From NCBI GenBank assembly GCA_000004985.1, contig GG739113.1: a stretch of 7,723 nt of DNA; one strand, given 5' to 3'. Both the position numbers and the translations under genes were made by a program. The DNA is from Naegleria gruberi. Lineage: Eukaryota. The notes under the pieces were generated by a model. The model had not been told where the DNA came from. It worked only from the letters and a program-made list of their open reading frames with translations, and did not search any database. Positions 1,151 to 7,723 of this stretch are shown piece by piece. Positions within the stretch are counted from its first letter, which is position 1; each line of letters begins with the position of its first letter.

Positions 1151-4100
1151 NNNNNNNNNNNNNNNNNNNNNNNNNNNNNNNNNNNNNNNNNNNNNNNNNN
1201 NNNNNNNNNNNNNNNNNNNNNNNNNNNNNNNNNNNNNNNNNNNNNNNNNNNNNNNNNNNNNNNNNNNNNNNNNNNNNNNNNNNNNNNNNNNNNNNNNNNN
1301 NNNNNNNNNNNNNNNNNNNNNNNNNNNNNNNNNNNNNNNNNNNNNNNNNNNNNNNNNNNNNNNNNNNNNNNNNNNNNNNNNNNNNNNNNNNNNNNNNNNN
1401 NNNNNNNNNNNNNNNNNNNNNNNNNNNNNNNNNNNNNNNNNNNNNNNNNNNNNNNNNNNNNNNNNNNNNNNNNNNNNNNNNNNNNNNNNNNNNNNNNNNN
1501 NNNNNNNNNNNNNNNNNNNNNNNNNNNNNNNNNNNNNNNNNNNNNNNNNNNNNNNNNNNNNNNNNNNNNNNNNNNNNNNNNNNNNNNNNNNNNNNNNNNN
1601 NNNNNNNNNNNNNNNNNNNNNNNNNNNNNNNNNNNNNNNNNNNNNNNNNNNNNNNNNNNNNNNNNNNNNNNNNNNNNNNNNNNNNNNNNNNNNNNNNNNN
1701 NNNNNNNNNNNNNNNNNNNNNNNNNNNNNNNNNNNNNNNNNNNNNNNNNNNNNNNNNNNNNNNNNNNNNNNNNNNNNNNNNNNNNNNNNNNNNNNNNNNN
1801 NNNNNNNNNNNNNNNNNNNNNNNNNNNNNNNNNNNNNNNNNNNNNNNNNNNNNNNNNNNNNNNNNNNNNNNNNNNNNNNNNNNNNNNNNNNNNNNNNNNN
1901 NNNNNNNNNNNNNNNNNNNNNNNNNNNNNNNNNNNNNNNNNNNNNNNNNNNNNNNNNNNNNNNNNNNNNNNNNNNNNNNNNNNNNNNNNNNNNNNNNNNN
2001 NNNNNNNNNNNNNNNNNNNNNNNNNNNNNNNNNNNNNNNNNNNNNNNNNNNNNNNNNNNNNNNNNNNNNNNNNNNNNNNNNNNNNNNNNNNNNNNNNNNN
2101 NNNNNNNNNNNNNNNNNNNNNNNNNNNNNNNNNNNNNNNNNNNNNNNNNNNNNNNNNNNNNNNNNNNNNNNNNNNNNNNNNNNNNNNNNNNNNNNNNNNN
2201 NNNNNNNNNNNNNNNNNNNNNNNNNNNNNNNNNNNNNNNNNNNNNNNNNNNNNNNNNNNNNNNNNNNNNNNNNNNNNNNNNNNNNNNNNNNNNNNNNNNN
2301 NNNNNNNNNNNNNNNNNNNNNNNNNNNNNNNNNNNNNNNNNNNNNNNNNNNNNNNNNNNNNNNNNNNNNNNNNNNNNNNNNNNNNNNNNNNNNNNNNNNN
2401 NNNNNNNNNNNNNNNNNNNNNNNNNNNNNNNNNNNNNNNNNNNNNNNNNNNNNNNNNNNNNNNNNNNNNNNNNNNNNNNNNNNNNNNNNNNNNNNNNNNN
2501 NNNNNNNNNNNNNNNNNNNNNNNNNNNNNNNNNNNNNNNNNNNNNNNNNNNNNNNNNNNNNNNNNNNNNNNNNNNNNNNNNNNNNNNNNNNNNNNNNNNN
2601 NNNNNNNNNNNNNNNNNNNNNNNNNNNNNNNNNNNNNNNNNNNNNNNNNNNNNNNNNNNNNNNNNNNNNNNNNNNNNNNNNNNNNNNNNNNNNNNNNNNN
2701 NNNNNNNNNNNNNNNNNNNNNNNNNNNNNNNNNNNNNNNNNNNNNNNNNNNNNNNNNNNNNNNNNNNNNNNNNNNNNNNNNNNNNNNNNNNNNNNNNNNN
2801 NNNNNNNNNNNNNNNNNNNNNNNNNNNNNNNNNNNNNNNNNNNNNNNNNNNNNNNNNNNNNNNNNNNNNNNNNNNNNNNNNNNNNNNNNNNNNNNNNNNN
2901 NNNNNNNNNNNNNNNNNNNNNNNNNNNNNNNNNNNNNNNNNNNNNNNNNNNNNNNNNNNNNNNNNNNNNNNNNNNNNNNNNNNNNNNNNNNNNNNNNNNN
3001 NNNNNNNNNNNNNNNNNNNNNNNNNNNNNNNNNNNNNNNNNNNNNNNNNNNNNNNNNNNNNNNNNNNNNNNNNNNNNNNNNNNNNNNNNNNNNNNNNNNN
3101 NNNNNNNNNNNNNNNNNNNNNNNNNNNNNNNNNNNNNNNNNNNNNNNNNNNNNNNNNNNNNNNNNNNNNNNNNNNNNNNNNNNNNNNNNNNNNNNNNNNN
3201 NNNNNNNNNNNNNNNNNNNNNNNNNNNNNNNNNNNNNNNNNNNNNNNNNNNNNNNNNNNNNNNNNNNNNNNNNNNNNNNNNNNNNNNNNNNNNNNNNNNN
3301 NNNNNNNNNNNNNNNNNNNNNNNNNNNNNNNNNNNNNNNNNNNNNNNNNNNNNNNNNNNNNNNNNNNNNNNNNNNNNNNNNNNNNNNNNNNNNNNNNNNN
3401 NNNNNNNNNNNNNNNNNNNNNNNNNNNNNNNNNNNNNNNNNNNNNNNNNNNNNNNNNNNNNNNNNNNNNNNNNNNNNNNNNNNNNNNNNNNNNNNNNNNN
3501 NNNNNNNNNNNNNNNNNNNNNNNNNNNNNNNNNNNNNNNNNNNNNNNNNNNNNNNNNNNNNNNNNNNNNNNNNNNNNNNNNNNNNNNNNNNNNNNNNNNN
3601 NNNNNNNNNNNNNNNNNNNNNNNNNNNNNNNNNNNNNNNNNNNNNNNNNNNNNNNNNNNNNNNNNNNNNNNNNNNNNNNNNNNNNNNNNNNNNNNNNNNN
3701 NNNNNNNNNNNNNNNNNNNNNNNNNNNNNNNNNNNNNNNNNNNNNNNNNNNNNNNNNNNNNNNNNNNNNNNNNNNNNNNNNNNNNNNNNNNNNNNNNNNN
3801 NNNNNNNNNNNNNNNNNNNNNNNNNNNNNNNNNNNNNNNNNNNNNNNNNNNNNNNNNNNNNNNNNNNNNNNNNNNNNNNNNNNNNNNNNNNNNNNNNNNN
3901 NNNNNNNNNNNNNNNNNNNNNNNNNNNNNNNNNNNNNNNNNNNNNNNNNNNNNNNNNNNNNNNNNNNNNNNNNNNNNNNNNNNNNNNNNNNNNNNNNNNN
4001 NNNNNNNNNNNNNNNNNNNNNNNNNNNNNNNNNNNNNNNNNNNNNNNNNNNNNNNNNNNNNNNNNNNNNNNNNNNNNNNNNNNNNNNNNNNNNNNNNNNN

Positions 4101-6059
4101 NNNNNNNNNNNNNNNNNNNNNNNNNNNNNNNNNNNNNNNNNNNNNNNNNNNNNNNNNNNNNNNNNNNNNNNNNNNNNNNNNNNNNNNNNNNNNNNNNNNN
4201 NNNNNNNNNNNNNNNNNNNNNNNNNNNNNNNNNNNNNNNNNNNNNNNNNNNNNNNNNNNNNNNNNNNNNNNNNNNNNNNNNNNNNNNNNNNNNNNNNNNN
4301 NNNNNNNNNNNNNNNNNNNNNNNNNNNNNNNNNNNNNNNNNNNNNNNNNNNNNNNNNNNNNNNNNNNNNNNNNNNNNNNNNNNNNNNNNNNNNNNNNNNN
4401 NNNNNNNNNNNNNNNNNNNNNNNNNNNNNNNNNNNNNNNNNNNNNNNNNNNNNNNNNNNNNNNNNNNNNNNNNNNNNNNNNNNNNNNNNNNNNNNNNNNN
4501 NNNNNNNNNNNNNNNNNNNNNNNNNNNNNNNNNNNNNNNNNNNNNNNNNNNNNNNNNNNNNNNNNNNNNNNNNNNNNNNNNNNNNNNNNNNNNNNNNNNN
4601 NNNNNNNNNNNNNNNNNNNNNNNNNNNNNNNNNNNNNNNNNNNNNNNNNNNNNNNNNNNNNNNNNNNNNNNNNNNNNNNNNNNNNNNNNNNNNNNNNNNN
4701 NNNNNNNNNNNNNNNNNNNNNNNNNNNNNNNNNNNNNNNNNNNNNNNNNNNNNNNNNNNNNNNNNNNNNNNNNNNNNNNNNNNNNNNNNNNNNNNNNNNN
4801 NNNNNNNNNNNNNNNNNNNNNNNNNNNNNNNNNNNNNNNNNNNNNNNNNNNNNNNNNNNNNNNNNNNNNNNNNNNNNNNNNNNNNNNNNNNNNNNNNNNN
4901 NNNNNNNNNNNNNNNNNNNNNNNNNNNNNNNNNNNNNNNNNNNNNNNNNNNNNNNNNNNNNNNNNNNNNNNNNNNNNNNNNNNNNNNNNNNNNNNNNNNN
5001 NNNNNNNNNNNNNNNNNNNNNNNNNNNNNNNNNNNNNNNNNNNNNNNNNNNNNNNNNNNNNNNNNNNNNNNNNNNNNNNNNNNNNNNNNNNNNNNNNNNN
5101 NNNNNNNNNNNNNNNNNNNNNNNNNNNNNNNNNNNNNNNNNNNNNNNNNNNNNNNNNNNNNNNNNNNNNNNNNNNNNNNNNNNNNNNNNNNNNNNNNNNN
5201 NNNNNNNNNNNNNNNNNNNNNNNNNNNNNNNNNNNNNNNNNNNNNNNNNNNNNNNNNNNNNNNNNNNNNNNNNNNNNNNNNNNNNNNNNNNNNNNNNNNN
5301 NNNNNNNNNNNNNNNNNNNNNNNNNNNNNNNNNNNNNNNNNNNNNNNNNNNNNNNNNNNNNNNNNNNNNNNNNNNNNNNNNNNNNNNNNNNNNNNNNNNN
5401 NNNNNNNNNNNNNNNNNNNNNNNNNNNNNNNNNNNNNNNNNNNNNNNNNNNNNNNNNNNNNNNNNNNNNNNNNNNNNNNNNNNNNNNNNNNNNNNNNNNN
5501 NNNNNNNNNNNNNNNNNNNNNNNNNNNNNNNNNNNNNNNNNNNNNNNNNNNNNNNNNNNNNNNNNNNNNNNNNNNNNNNNNNNNNNNNNNNNNNNNNNNN
5601 NNNNNNNNNNNNNNNNNNNNNNNNNNNNNNNNNNNNNNNNNNNNNNNNNNNNNNNNNNNNNNNNNNNNNNNNNNNNNNNNNNNNNNNNNNNNNNNNNNNN
5701 NNNNNNNNNNNNNNNNNNNNNNNNNNNNNNNNNNNNNNNNNNNNNNNNNNNNNNNNNNNNNNNNNNNNNNNNNNNNNNNNNNNNNNNNNNNNNNNNNNNN
5801 NNNNNNNNNNNNNNNNNNNNNNNNNNNNNNNNNNNNNNNNNNNNNNNNNNNNNNNNNNNNNNNNNNNNNNNNNNNNNNNNNNNNNNNNNNNNNNNNNNNN
5901 NNNNNNNNNNNNNNNNNNNNNNNNNNNNNNNNNNNNNNNNNNNNNNNNNNNNNNNNNNNNNNNNNNNNNNNNNNNNNNNNNNNNNNNNNNNNNNNNNNNN
6001 NNNNNNNNNNNNNNNNNNNNNNNNNNNNNNNNNNNNNNNNNNNNNNNNNNNNNNNNNNN
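1151..6059. other. run of 4909 N (scaffold gap of estimated size, or masked sequence); content cannot be assessed
   Basis: Uninterrupted N characters. The three more-than-1600-aa ORFs in the track (1038-6074, 1087-6081, 1115-6136 minus) exist only because N translates to X. Confidence 0.99.
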
Positions 6060-6079
6060 TTTAAAAGAAAATAGTGTCT

Positions 6080-6084
6080 AAAAA
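6080..6084 (-). terminator. T5 run (AAAAA on the plus strand) 11 nt downstream of the tRNA-Gly 3' end; candidate pol III terminator
   Basis: The minus strand reads ...TCGACGCA TCAGCTTATAA TTTTT. Its position and composition fit a pol III terminator of the interrupted tRNA gene. Confidence 0.4.
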
Positions 6085-6095
6085 TTATAAGCTGA

Positions 6096-6115
6096 TGCGT
6101 CGACCGGGAATTGAA
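6096..6115 (-). tRNA. 3' portion of an interrupted tRNA-Gly(GCC): T-loop, 3' half of the T-stem, 3' half of the acceptor stem, and discriminator A
   Basis: The reverse complement is TTCAATT-CCCGG-TCGACGC-A. TCGACGC pairs perfectly with the acceptor 5' half GCGTCGA found at 7484-7490 on the minus strand, and CCCGG pairs with the T-stem CCGGG at 7441-7445 on the minus strand. Confidence 0.8.
6108..6115. repeat. left copy of the 8-bp direct repeat GAATTGAA (target-site duplication in the tRNA T-loop)
   Basis: The identical octamer recurs at 7432-7439. Each copy supplies the same T-loop nucleotides (TTCAATTC) to one tRNA fragment. Confidence 0.75.
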
Positions 6116-6140
6116 ATTTCCTTTTTTGGAATTCATTTAA

Positions 6141-6251
6141 CTTTTAATTTTATGATGAAATTATGAATTTTAATATTATTCATGATGTGAAACATCATGT
6201 TGAATTCTGTTCATTATTTTTAATTCATGATGTGAAACATCATGTTGAATT
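6141..6251 (+). repeat. tandem repeat: three copies of a ~45-bp unit (TTTTTAATTCATGATGTGAAACATCATGTTGAATT). The first copy is shortened. Copies 2 and 3 each carry a perfect hairpin palindrome, CATGATG-TGAAA-CATCATG.
   Basis: Identical 29-mers occur at 6178-6206 and 6223-6251, and a shorter variant at 6141-6171. The palindromes lie at 6181-6199 and 6226-6244 (7-bp stems, 5-nt loop). Confidence 0.7.
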
Positions 6252-6287
6252 ATTAACAAATGTTGTTCTTCAATTTTTAATTGAATG

Positions 6288-6333
6288 TTGGAAATATCGG
6301 AAATATTGGAAAGTTGGAAATAAAAGTTGGAAG
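6288..6333 (+). repeat. degenerate microsatellite of about five or six octamers: TTGGAAAT, TCGGAAAT, TTGGAAAG, TTGGAAAT, TTGGAAG
   Basis: Seen directly in GTTGGAAATATCGGAAATATTGGAAAGTTGGAAATAAAAGTTGGAAG. Confidence 0.6.
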
Positions 6334-6336
6334 TTA

Positions 6337-6377
6337 GGTAACGGGTTTTGGAATTACCTAATGTGGAAATTGAATTC
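6337..6377 (+). repeat. dispersed motif copy B: GGTAACGGGTTTTGGAATTACCTAATGTGGAAATTGAATTC
   Basis: Alignable to copies at 6704-6731 and 7358-7395, and to the tRNA-insertion junction at 6104-6122. The shared core is AACGG(G)-W4-G(R)AATT(M)CC...AAATTGA. Confidence 0.5.
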
Positions 6378-6446
6378 AATTTTGAAATTGAATAAAAGTG
6401 AATTGTTTCAATAAATTTAAAAAACAAGTATTATTTTAAAATTGTA

Positions 6447-6704
6447 TTGAATGATTTAAGTAACACATATTTTGATAAGAATGAAATTATTCAATATAAA
6501 ATTGAAATTATGCCATCAAATATTATTCAACAATATTCTAAACGAAAGTTTCTTGTTAGAAAAGATAGTCAAAAGAACTCAAGATTTATTACATATCAAC
6601 CTGACGCTCAATCACCATCAAAGAAAACAAAGAAGAATAACATTATTGAAAGTGATATTGAAGATTTCGATTGCAATATTAAAGATATTGATGATTGGGT
6701 ATAG
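6447..6704 (+). CDS. doubtful 85-codon ORF (Lys-rich, acidic C-terminus, SPSKKTKK NLS-like patch) inside the insertion
   Basis: ATG to TAG with no stops, which is unlikely by chance in 70% AT DNA. However, the region is purine-rich and a second overlapping 92-codon ORF is open in another frame, so the absence of stops may be compositional. No recognisable domain. Confidence 0.2.
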   Translation: MNDLSNTYFDKNEIIQYKIEIMPSNIIQQYSKRKFLVRKDSQKNSRFITYQPDAQSPSKKTKKNNIIESDIEDFDCNIKDIDDWV

Positions 6705-6731
6705 GGGAACGGAATTTCCTAATTGGGAATG
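6704..6731 (+). repeat. dispersed motif copy A: GGGGAACGGAATTTCCTAATTGGGAATG, which abuts the stop codon of the 85-codon ORF
   Basis: Same family as 6337-6377 and 7358-7395. It also aligns with the junction sequence CCGGGAATTGAAATTTCCTTTTTTGGAATTCAT (6104-6136). Confidence 0.5.
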
Positions 6732-6853
6732 TCATCACACAATAAATTAAATTTATTATTTATTCATTGATGTTCACAAACTGTGAATTAACACATTACA
6801 TGATGAAACAATTCAAACATTTACTCAAACTTTAAACCTTAACATTAACCATC

Positions 6854-6872
6854 GGGTAACGGATTTTAATAC
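6854..6872 (+). repeat. shorter motif copy C: GGGTAACGGATTTTAATAC
   Basis: Shares GGTAACGG plus an A/T tract with copies A, B and D. Weaker than the others. Confidence 0.3.
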
Positions 6873-6890
6873 ATGTACTAGTATGTTGAT

Positions 6891-6904
6891 AATTGGTCGA
6901 CGCA
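6891..6904 (+). pseudogene. tRNA-Gly 3'-end-like fragment in the opposite orientation (AATT-GGTCGACGCA; the CCC of the T-stem is missing), inside the insertion
   Basis: The GC-rich 10-mer GGTCGACGCA is identical to the last 10 nt of the reconstituted tRNA and is preceded by the T-loop AATT. It is very unlikely by chance in an AT-rich context, though no BLAST was possible. Confidence 0.4.
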
Positions 6905-6918
6905 CAGAAATTTAAATA

Positions 6919-7313
6919 CAGCACGTTTACTTCAAATTTGACGCGTTTTTTGAAAGAAAATAAATTATTTAGAAAAAATTTTGTTGTTCTTCTGCTGTCA
7001 AATCCAAAATAAGCATTTCAATAGAACAACACCTAACCACTCGTTCTTACTCATTTCTACATATTTTTGAGAATGCTGCCACCCCAAGGGGTATGTCAAT
7101 GCAAGGATTCATAATTTGAAGTCAGATTTCAAAACTACCTTAATTCCATCGAGAAATTAGCATTTTGTTGAATAAAATATTATCGTTACAGATTCTTTTC
7201 AAATGAAGTTGAGTTTACTTGCCAAATCAAAATTGAAAGATGAAATACTTTAAATTTTAAAAAAAACAATTTTAATTTCCCCAAATCTTGTCAAACTTGA
7301 AGTAAACGTGCTG
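6919..7313. mobile_element. nested 395-bp MITE-like element with 24-bp terminal inverted repeats (CAGCACGTTTACTTCAARTTTGAC, 1 mismatch), flanked on both sides by TA (6917-6918 and 7314-7315); Tc1/mariner-like signature
   Basis: Left terminal inverted repeat at 6919-6942; right terminal inverted repeat at 7290-7313, which is the exact reverse complement apart from one A/G difference. The inverted repeat stops precisely at the TA dinucleotides. The interior is AT-rich and non-coding. Confidence 0.5.
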
Positions 7314-7357
7314 TAAACAGAATTAACAAGAATAAAAGCAAAATCCTACATAGAGTT

Positions 7358-7395
7358 GGAGAACGGGAAATGAAATTCCCACAAATTAAATTGAG
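7358..7395 (+). repeat. dispersed motif copy D: GGAGAACGGGAAATGAAATTCCCACAAATTAAATTGAG, containing the near-palindrome GGGAAATGAAATTCCC
   Basis: It matches 14 of 16 positions of the junction sequence GGGAATTGAAATTTCC (6106-6121) and aligns along its length with copy B. Confidence 0.5.
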
Positions 7396-7431
7396 AAGCA
7401 ACACAATCACAATAATTCATACTATCAAAAT

Positions 7432-7439
7432 GAATTGAA
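7432..7439. repeat. right copy of the 8-bp direct repeat GAATTGAA (target-site duplication)
   Basis: Identical to 6108-6115. This is the point where the tRNA 5' fragment stops matching tRNA sequence (7431 is T where the tRNA requires G on the plus strand). Confidence 0.75.
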
Positions 7440-7490
7440 CCCGGGTCACGGCGATGGCAACGCCGTATTCCACCACTAAACCATCGACGC
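7432..7490 (-). tRNA. 5' portion (about nt 1-61) of the interrupted tRNA-Gly(GCC): acceptor 5' half, D-arm, anticodon arm with GCC anticodon, variable loop, T-stem 5' half and T-loop
   Basis: The reverse complement is GCGTCGATGGTTTAGTGGTGGAATACGGCGTTGCCATCGCCGTGACCCGGGTTCAATTC. The anticodon stem CGGCG/CGCCG is perfect around the loop TTGCCAT (anticodon GCC). An A-box TGGTTTAGTGG is present, and there is an AT-rich TATA-like upstream flank (7491-7540 on the minus strand). Confidence 0.85.
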
Positions 7491-7723
7491 TTCTTAGTCT
7501 ATCAAATATAATAATAATAGATAGTGTAATTTAATAAACTGTCATCAATGAAGTGTGAACCAATGAATGGAACGCCACATTACCAAAAAAAAATATCAAC
7601 CCTAAACGGTGTATTTATCGTTTCAACATGCAGCCAAATTTTTCAACAAGAACAAAAAACAATAATTTATCACCAACAAGAATATAATGAGAATGATAAA
7701 TCAAGTTAATAGTAATAATGAAA

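Follow-up and report, generated by a model that had tools for sequence, protein, structure and literature searches.

Junction-like motifs in and around an insert that splits the T loop of a tRNA-Gly(GCC) gene of Naegleria gruberi

Introduction

Few mobile elements that move as DNA are strictly specific for multicopy RNA genes, and Dada is the one superfamily of this kind that has been described (PMC3706591). Here we analyze a complete scaffold of Naegleria gruberi of 7,723 bp (the window), in which a tRNA-Gly(GCC) gene is split within its T loop by an insert of 1,316 bp, termed insert E. A short motif that spans the left junction of insert E recurs inside the insert. We consider it somewhat better than an even bet (probability about 0.55) that this motif serves as left-junction signature for a family of small, non-autonomous DNA elements which integrate into the T loop of tRNA-Gly(GCC) at one position and in one orientation. 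Real sequence is present at 1-1150 and 6060-7723 only; the run in between (1151-6059) consists of 4,909 N, and its end at 6059 adjoins the trailer of the split tRNA. A first-pass annotation had drawn attention to the motif and had framed it in terms of yeast elements. The DNA is from N. gruberi and this framing does not hold.

The targets of Dada elements are small RNA genes present in many copies, for instance tRNA-Gly in the protist Perkinsus, which are hit at a fixed site and in a fixed orientation (Kojima and Jurka, 2013, PMC3706591; Kojima, 2022, PMC8869645). They have no terminal inverted repeats (TIRs), their internally deleted non-autonomous derivatives keep both ends, and their sequences resemble the target (PMC3706591; PMC8869645). 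The target-site duplication (TSD) of Dada is 6-7 bp long and GC-rich (GCG...), and the lineages specific for tRNA genes insert at nt 8-13 or in the anticodon loop; apparent 8-bp TSDs can arise where the termini mimic the target (PMC3706591; PMC8869645). Autonomous copies encode a DDE transposase with zinc fingers plus a DEDD exonuclease (PMC3706591; PMC8869645). Dada hosts possess very many tRNA genes, and it has been argued for them that the loss of single genes is cheap (PMC3706591). The word Naegleria is absent from the text of both Dada papers (PMC3706591; PMC8869645), and a literature search, with Repbase outside its scope, yielded no description of Naegleria MITEs (miniature inverted-repeat transposable elements) or tRNA-targeting elements.

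Insert E resembles Dada in its fixed site in a multicopy small RNA gene, although in a very small sample, in the lack of TIRs and in its deletion-like derivatives. It differs in its TSD, the 8-bp GAATTGAA at nt 54-61, i.e., in the T loop, although the length by itself does not decide the matter, and no Dada transposase was found. The element does contain target-like sequence, the copy c3 described below (12 of 14 positions), in direct orientation and at a different distance. By this comparison Dada would be the closest system in behavior; membership does not appear to be supported.

The hAT elements generate an 8-bp TSD and carry short TIRs with 5'-YARNG; those of Ac/Ds type have subterminal AAACGG motifs which bind the transposase. 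Insert E shares with them the 8-bp TSD and repeated (T/G)AACGG words. Yet it possesses no YARNG TIR, as its ends ATTTCC... and ...CAAAAT have only ATTT in common when inverted. Decay of tRNA sequence is the better explanation for its AACGG words, none of which is on the other strand, and no hAT transposase is present.

Bacterial integrative elements, as Williams reportedly set out in 2002, use the T-loop region of tRNA genes as attB, restore the tRNA 3' end and encode an integrase. The sublocation within the tRNA (the dyad-symmetric T arm), the orientation specificity and the direct repeats of tRNA 3' fragments at boundaries are alike in insert E. Insert E, by contrast, destroys the tRNA, resides in a eukaryote and shows no integrase. 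Dictyostelium TRE and DGLT-A as well as Ty3 are retroelements, with long terminal repeats or variable 5' ends, that insert up- or downstream of tRNA genes via RNA polymerase III (Pol III) factors. Insert E has in common with these the use of tRNA genes as safe landing sites in compact genomes; in contrast, it is located inside the T loop, both of its ends are fixed, and the short derivatives look like deletions.

The split tRNA-Gly(GCC) gene and the ends of insert E

The tRNA-Gly(GCC) gene is on the minus strand and is cut in the T loop, with the 5' part at 7490..7432 and the 3' part at 6115..6096. When 6115 is joined to 7440, ARAGORN recognizes a canonical 71-nt tRNA-Gly(GCC) with perfect stems. 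Removal of the insert thus restores the tRNA, which confirms the earlier proposal that the first motif copy is a junction between a tRNA T arm and an insertion. The octamer GAATTGAA is found at 6108-6115 and 7432-7439 and nowhere else in the window. It corresponds to tRNA nt 54-61 and is an 8-bp TSD around the insert, as had been suspected. The parts of the locus are:

6060..6095, minus strand: tRNA-Gly 3' trailer, abutting the N run that ends at 6059
6096..6115, minus strand: tRNA-Gly(GCC) 3' part (T loop and the 3' strands of both T stem and acceptor stem), with TSD copy 1 at 6108-6115
6116..7431, plus strand: insert E of 1,316 bp, between the two copies of the 8-bp duplication; composite, non-autonomous, no TIR
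7432..7490, minus strand: tRNA-Gly(GCC) 5' part, starting with TSD copy 2 (7432-7439)

The split by the insert explains why tRNA predictors call a truncated tRNA-Gly in this scaffold. On the unspliced window ARAGORN reports a tRNA-Gly(GCC) at 7420-7491 on the minus strand, and the truncated gene reaches 17.6 bits with Rfam versus a gathering score of 29. The apparently complete tRNA of ARAGORN takes both its T stem and its acceptor stem from element sequence, ATTTTGATAGTA. On the strand of the tRNA, the element opens with TTTT directly behind the T loop, and this TTTT resembles a Pol III terminator.

Insert E begins with ATTTCCTTTTTTGGAAT and ends with ...CATACTATCAAAAT; the two ends may also be written as ATTTCC...TACTATCAAAAT. 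It has no TIR: comparison of the left 200 nt with the reverse complement of the right 200 nt gives P=0.18, and ATTT alone is shared. An outer insert bearing TIRs was rejected on these grounds. No long open reading frame (ORF) exists within insert E.

The motif family

The sequence CCGGGAATTGAAATTTCC at 6104-6121 spans the left junction. Its reported recurrence is real, with 14 of 16 positions identical in GGGAAATGAAATTCCC; the site is 7365-7380, one base off the 7366-7381 given before. The five copies originally proposed align gap-free over 43 columns and had been located correctly to within one base. The fifth, short copy (6854-6872) is present as a half-copy at 6851-6867, yet as a motif member it scores just 5-7 bits. 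The other four are:

6102..6132, plus strand: J_L, fresh left junction; T stem and T loop of the tRNA, GACCGGGAATTGAA, then the element start ATTTCC-N6-GGAAT
6334..6369, plus strand: c1, preceded by GGAAA(T/G) repeats (6286-6335); a hairpin with 9-bp arms is possible; found at 57-92 of L002, a second copy described below
6695..6730, plus strand: c2, a putative fossil left junction; in L002 the outer part of the inverted repeat of MITE-2, whose right arm is lost in the window
7354..7391, plus strand: c3, GAACGGGAAATGAA followed by ATTCCC, identical to the fresh junction at 17 of 20 positions; a palindrome with 5-bp arms, GGGAA..TTCCC

We compared 6060-7723 with itself by composition-weighted, ungapped alignment, and judged each match by the highest score obtained in dinucleotide shuffles. 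A 29-bp tandem hairpin repeat ranks first; the best direct matches below it all link the same five places. The score of c1 (6334-6368) with c2 (6695-6729) is reached by 2% of the shuffles, that of J_L (6102-6121) with c3 (7361-7380, 17/20) by 5%, that of J_L with c1 by 7% and that of J_L with c2 by 20%. Taken singly these matches are borderline (2-20%); jointly they are far beyond chance.

Patterns defined post hoc were counted. GGG-N7-ATTNCC occurs four times on the plus strand (6106, 6343, 6704, 7365) and never on the minus strand, with 0.006 expected per shuffle. ATTNCC-N6-GGAA occurs three times (6116, 6353, 6714; expected 0.005). Further, AACGG is found four times in the insert, always on the plus strand (P=0.0005). 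In leave-one-out scans with a position weight matrix (PWM) each copy left out, at 18.7-27.9 bits, was the top non-training site among about 5,600 positions on both strands, whereas the best background site did not exceed 12.6 bits. The claim that the family stands above the AT-rich background is thus upheld within the window by pattern counts, leave-one-out PWM and strand bias.

Chance resemblance in AT-rich, low-complexity DNA might still be invoked, given that the single pairwise matches are borderline against the shuffle maximum and that the junction 20-mer matches exactly, by chance, in a bacterial metagenome contig. The joint pattern counts, at about 500-700 times expectation, the strict strand bias, the recovery of every copy left out and the conservation of the motif in L002 all oppose it, and the pattern counts together with the leave-one-out PWM already effectively refute it. 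The bacterial contig itself was discarded as a candidate: it contains no tRNA and no similarity to the window beyond a match of 21 nt, which appears to sit in coding sequence. Scans of viral contigs and prokaryote genomes with motif or TIR patterns returned nothing or chance matches only.

The copies were initially described as near-palindromes of which several end in AAATTGA. The ending is correct for c1 and c3 and not for the remaining copies; the palindrome applies mainly to c3. No hairpin is common to the copies, which fold differently and mostly no better than shuffles, and a shared hairpin as the essence of the motif was rejected for this reason. We also rejected c3 as a TSD twin of J_L, i.e., a duplication of 14-20 bp, since c3 is changed at 3 of 20 positions while 79 nt of tRNA halves are intact.

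Palindromy bears on another explanation. A tyrosine or serine recombinase, of Crypton-like or bacterial type, may recognize the dyad symmetry of the T arm as it would an attB site; the 8 bp present twice would then be the crossover core and not a duplication made by a transposase. In the T arm CCGGG-AATTGAA-CCCGG, inverted repeats naturally enclose a spacer of 7 nt, c3 is a palindrome of 5-bp arms with a similar spacer, the 8-nt core is identical at both junctions, and the element lacks TIRs and is inserted in an orientation-specific manner. The right junction, however, has no GGG/CCC half-site on the element side (...ATCAAAAT followed by GAATTGAA), the tRNA remains without its 3' end, a recombinase gene is not seen, and the short derivatives described below resemble the internal-deletion products typical of cut-and-paste elements. 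We consider a recombinase very unlikely.

A second copy of the composite, a nested MITE and a MITE-like structure

The 85-aa ORF at 6447-6704 in insert E is 98% identical to the N. gruberi predicted protein P0002 (XP_002678484), which is encoded on a 507-kb scaffold. An exhaustive HMMER search with P0002 retrieved P0003, a 44-aa protein from an ENA metagenome. The 559-bp contig of P0003, L002, is 91-97% identical to the window at 6276-6403, 6608-6825, 6889-6918 and 7314-7350, and in it c1 and c2 are conserved. In ENA the contig is ERZ929261 k127_78230, assembled from ERR1078381. Weak HMMER matches (P0004-P0006) were set aside as repetitive proteins, seemingly unrelated to the element.

L002 lacks 6919-7313 precisely and has a single TA at this point, i.e., the empty site of a nested element:

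6919..7313, no strand: MITE-1, nested, 395 bp; TIR CAGCACGTTTACTTCAA(A/G)TTTGAC, flanked by TA at 6917-6918 and 7314-7315

The TIR of MITE-1 has a near-perfect core of about 24 bp (23/24) and weakens from there to its limit at 33 nt. No other inverted repeat in the region is significant. TA duplication, TIRs and a precise empty site are the marks of a Tc1/mariner-type MITE, and MITE-1 has all three. Because the empty site in L002 is exact, MITE-1 is a separate, nested, TA-flanked insertion of Tc1/mariner-like type which arrived after the composite had formed.

L002 contains another, MITE-like structure, MITE-2, of 289 bp (L002 205-493), bounded by perfect inverted repeats (29/29 and 18/18; arms 205-233/465-493 and 247-264/436-453). 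Its flanks in L002 share ATA only. The structure is seen in two copies, of which the one in the window is without the right arm; the right-arm region measures 63 bp in the window versus 152 bp in L002. The outer 24 nt of the MITE-2 arms are the tRNA-like half of the motif. Decayed target sequence thus appears to have been recruited into the TIR of MITE-2.

Arms and putative fossil junctions

The similarity between the copies extends beyond the motif. We compared the following arms by gapped, composition-aware alignments: A (6116-~6255), B (6714-6825), C (L002 ~385-470, taken as reverse complement) and D (7375-7431). The corresponding features are:

6116..6255, plus strand: arm A, the left-terminal ~110-140 nt of insert E; shares homology with arms B and C and includes a pair of 29-bp hairpin repeats
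6714..6842, plus strand: E' (arm B), a putative older, short family member, between the fossil tRNA 3' side (c2) and 5' side (c4)
6843..6870, minus strand: c4, a putative fossil right junction; T-loop relic ATTAACC plus CGGGTAACGG, versus CGGGTCACGG in the tRNA; truncated in the window
6889..6918, plus strand: ATAATTGGTCGACGCACAGAAATTTAAA, putatively what is left of inverted fossil junction C together with its trailer; contains GGTCGACGCA, identical to the tRNA-Gly 3' end
7375..7431, plus strand: arm D, the right-terminal 57 nt of insert E, with the look of a miniature member having both ends (ATTCCC...CAAAAT)

Within the insert alone A matches C (P=0.003) and B (P=0.02), and no unrelated real segment reaches either score. 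The start of E', ATTTCCTAATTGGGAAT, agrees with that of insert E at 14 of 17 positions. Arm A adjoins the real tRNA 3' part. The alignment of A with C does not break off where the arm ends; it crosses a counterpart of the tRNA 3' part, about 50% identical, and enters a homologue of the trailer (z=8.3). The trailer by itself, GTGTCTAAAAATTATAAGCTGAT at 6074-6096, matches GTGTCGACCAATTATATGATGAT, which flanks the inverted fossil junction in L002, at 18 of 23 positions, a score reached by 0 of 1000 shuffles and 0 of 126 unrelated real segments. By these alignments, the motif is the core of homologous arms of about 110 nt, each with the real tRNA 3' part or a decayed look-alike on its outside.

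The flanking halves were also examined separately. The flank side of c3 agrees with the tRNA at 12 of 14 positions (flank-only P=0.005). A PWM built from the flank-side halves of c1-c3 gives the real tRNA flank 8.2 bits, its best position in the tRNA and in the exact junction register (P about 4e-4 with window background, 8e-4 with tRNA-like composition). Past c4, a decayed tRNA body follows at L002 345-378: the alignment of 36 columns, CGGGTAACGG...CCACAACT versus CGGGTCACGG...CCACCACT of the tRNA, runs in antisense to the tRNA up to the D arm (P<=0.006). Further, 6795-6862 is colinear with the right junction of insert E at 7385-7451, which comprises the element end, the TSD and the T stem (P<=0.001). 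A BLAST comparison between empty site and insert, scored uniformly, gave no information under the AT bias and was discarded. So was a model of tandem units, in which the motif would consist of a right end, the TSD and the next left end, because the true right end ...CAAAAT does not precede the internal copies.

These findings have to be weighed against the view that the copies are iterated transposase-binding sites of one element, which the T arm resembles by target mimicry, and are not fossils. The copies align without indels over 27-43 nt and have a single orientation, one coincides with the terminus and another is 51 nt away from the opposite end, and c2 with its inverted twin forms the perfect 29-bp TIR in L002. 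Clustered GGAA words are over-represented within the insert (P=0.0045), and Dada provides a precedent of target-like subterminal repeats for which target mimicry was speculated (PMC3706591). Binding sites, however, do not require homology over arms of about 110 nt and from there into a trailer homologue (C) and a tRNA body (c4). Moreover, the copies are spread through the whole insert, not confined to subterminal positions, and the one near the right end is direct, not inverted. This view seems rather unlikely to us.

The trailer homology raises yet another question, i.e., whether a site-specific element exists at all. A single ancestral insertion into tRNA-Gly, followed by local segmental, inverted and tandem duplications and gene conversion, would have multiplied the junction and left the outer tRNA halves intact. 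In favor of this view, the fossil trailer within insert E is an inverted homologue of the trailer that belongs to the 'fresh' gene. In L002, 29+18 nt are identical between arms B and C, a hint of recent homogenization, and the scaffold is a small unplaced fragment beside a 4.9-kb gap. Against this, the 8-bp duplication flanks the whole block precisely, the tRNA halves are both perfect, as opposed to a divergence of ~35-50% in the internal fossils, and the composite is present elsewhere (L002; P0002 on the 507-kb scaffold). We regard local duplication as an unlikely origin.

Other features of the scaffold

Several observations concern the interior of insert E. Two identical 29-bp units, ATTCATGATGTGAAACATCATGTTGAATT, are located in arm A at 6178-6206 and 6223-6251, 45 bp apart. 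Each forms a hairpin with an 8-bp stem (DNA fold z=-3.1), and diverged counterparts exist in arms B and C. Just upstream of c1, at 6286-6335, GGAAA(T/G) words are clustered at a spacing of about 9 bp; the cluster is also present in L002 (14-53), with one unit fewer. It has the look of an array of protein-binding sites. Just past c1, at 6367-6382, there is a perfect 16-bp palindrome, AAATTGAATTCAATTT, which is kept in L002 (91-106) and contains two T-loop-like AATTGAA words. The word AATTGGTCGACGCA (6892-6905) aligns ambiguously, either as acceptor end (10/10) or as trailer word.

The final codons (DDWV*) of the 85-aa ORF at 6447-6704 are located in arm-B/TIR sequence, and its middle is deleted in L002. 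It is probably a spurious ORF in a repeat and not a gene. An ORF of 83 aa spans arm A and c1; a protein search with it gave no homologue.

In the trailer (6060-6095), read on the tRNA strand, TTATAATTTTTAGACAC is a weak second look-alike of the stretch from T loop to 3' end of the tRNA, TTCAATTCCCGGTCGACGC (6096-6115). It could be the relic of a still earlier event, or chance. The N run begins 36 bp past the 3' end of the split tRNA, and homology to the internal 'trailer' might continue there.

The sole annotated gene of the scaffold, 519-1019, encodes 166 aa, and the ORF at 519-1016 is 100% identical to an N. gruberi 'predicted protein'. The 166-aa protein has no Pfam domain and, among 5.8 billion proteins, no homologue besides itself. 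The stop codon overlaps GTAAGT, which resembles a 5' splice site; the gene model may be truncated.

Discussion

The most likely explanation for this locus, at slightly above even odds, is a DNA element that targets a small RNA gene and carries the motif as its junction signature. The element would land at a fixed position of the T loop, with duplication of tRNA nt 54-61, and in a single orientation. One half of each copy would be the 3' side of the tRNA T stem and T loop (GACCGGG-AATTGAA), or what remains of it after decay. The other half would be the left terminus of the element, ATTYCC-N6-GGAAT, presumably bound by a transposase or integrase. The internal copies may then be old left junctions of one element family, carried inside a composite which itself landed in the T loop of tRNA-Gly. 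In other words, the locus would display one fresh junction on the outside (6102-6132) and at least three old ones within; c2, E' (6714-6842) and c4 together would represent a complete fossil 'filled site'. The composite later received the unrelated, TA-flanked MITE.

The order of events can be deduced to some extent. Since c2, E' and c4 present a tRNA 3' part, an element and a tRNA 5' part in the present orientation and register, they may be taken as a fossil of the present configuration. Both tRNA halves are intact, compared with a divergence of 3-9% between the composites of the window and L002 and of 35-50% in the fossils. Thus, the present insertion would be younger than the composite. From this it follows that at least two independent events took place at the same nucleotide and in the same orientation, and because of them we infer site specificity. 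Integration may well be site- and orientation-specific, on a basis of very few events, and the composite may be mobile as a block. The fixed ends and the short, deletion-like derivatives (E', D) favor DNA-level cut-and-paste or a recombinase over target-primed reverse transcription. N. gruberi has about 924 tDNAs (PMC2888827); hence the loss of single copies should be cheap.

The interpretations offered by the first-pass annotation can be judged accordingly. Repeated insertion at T-loop sites came close, with the specification that the copies would be decayed tRNA-Gly 3' sequence joined to the left terminus of an element. The idea of a tRNA-derived module holds insofar as the left halves resemble decayed tRNA-Gly 3' sequence, and fails insofar as covariance models find no tRNA-like module. 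Subterminal transposase-binding repeats agree with the one copy in the perfect 29-bp inverted repeat of L002, and disagree with homologies that span arms of about 110 nt and look-alikes of tRNA trailer and body.

A number of points weigh against our proposal. The evidence consists of one fresh junction and one extra DNA copy, and L002 stops short of both ends of insert E. All P-values derive from alignments picked after inspection. No transposase or integrase gene was found. A tRNA covariance model (Rfam, E<=10) detects only the split gene itself and no fossil tRNA in the insert or in L002; the tRNA-like head with internal Pol III promoter, by which a tRNA-derived SINE (short interspersed element) or module would be recognized with such a model, is detected in neither. 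The fossils are claimed on a similarity of ~50-70% to this one tRNA-Gly. For c1 and c3, neither trailer nor tRNA body lends support. The similarity of the right ends on the element side only (D versus E') is borderline (P=0.06). The trailer homology between fresh and fossil junctions could reflect shared flanks of tRNA-Gly paralogues or a local inverted duplication.

Tentatively, we consider it possible that Naegleria harbors an undescribed family of TIR-less elements which target the T loop (nt 54-61) of tRNA-Gly(GCC) in a specific orientation, generate an 8-bp duplication and drag along fragments of earlier targets, even into a TIR (MITE-2). Such a family would be a second, mechanistically distinct class beside Dada. 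Should the family already be contained in Repbase, or should the locus be a single, locus-specific rearrangement, this is ordinary repeat biology. If the proposal is true, a T-loop-specific family in a heterolobosean would widen the phylogenetic and mechanistic range of 'safe-harbor' transposition. It would show in what way target fragments are carried along and recycled into element ends. Lastly, an autonomous partner would constitute a naturally targeted integration system to look for.

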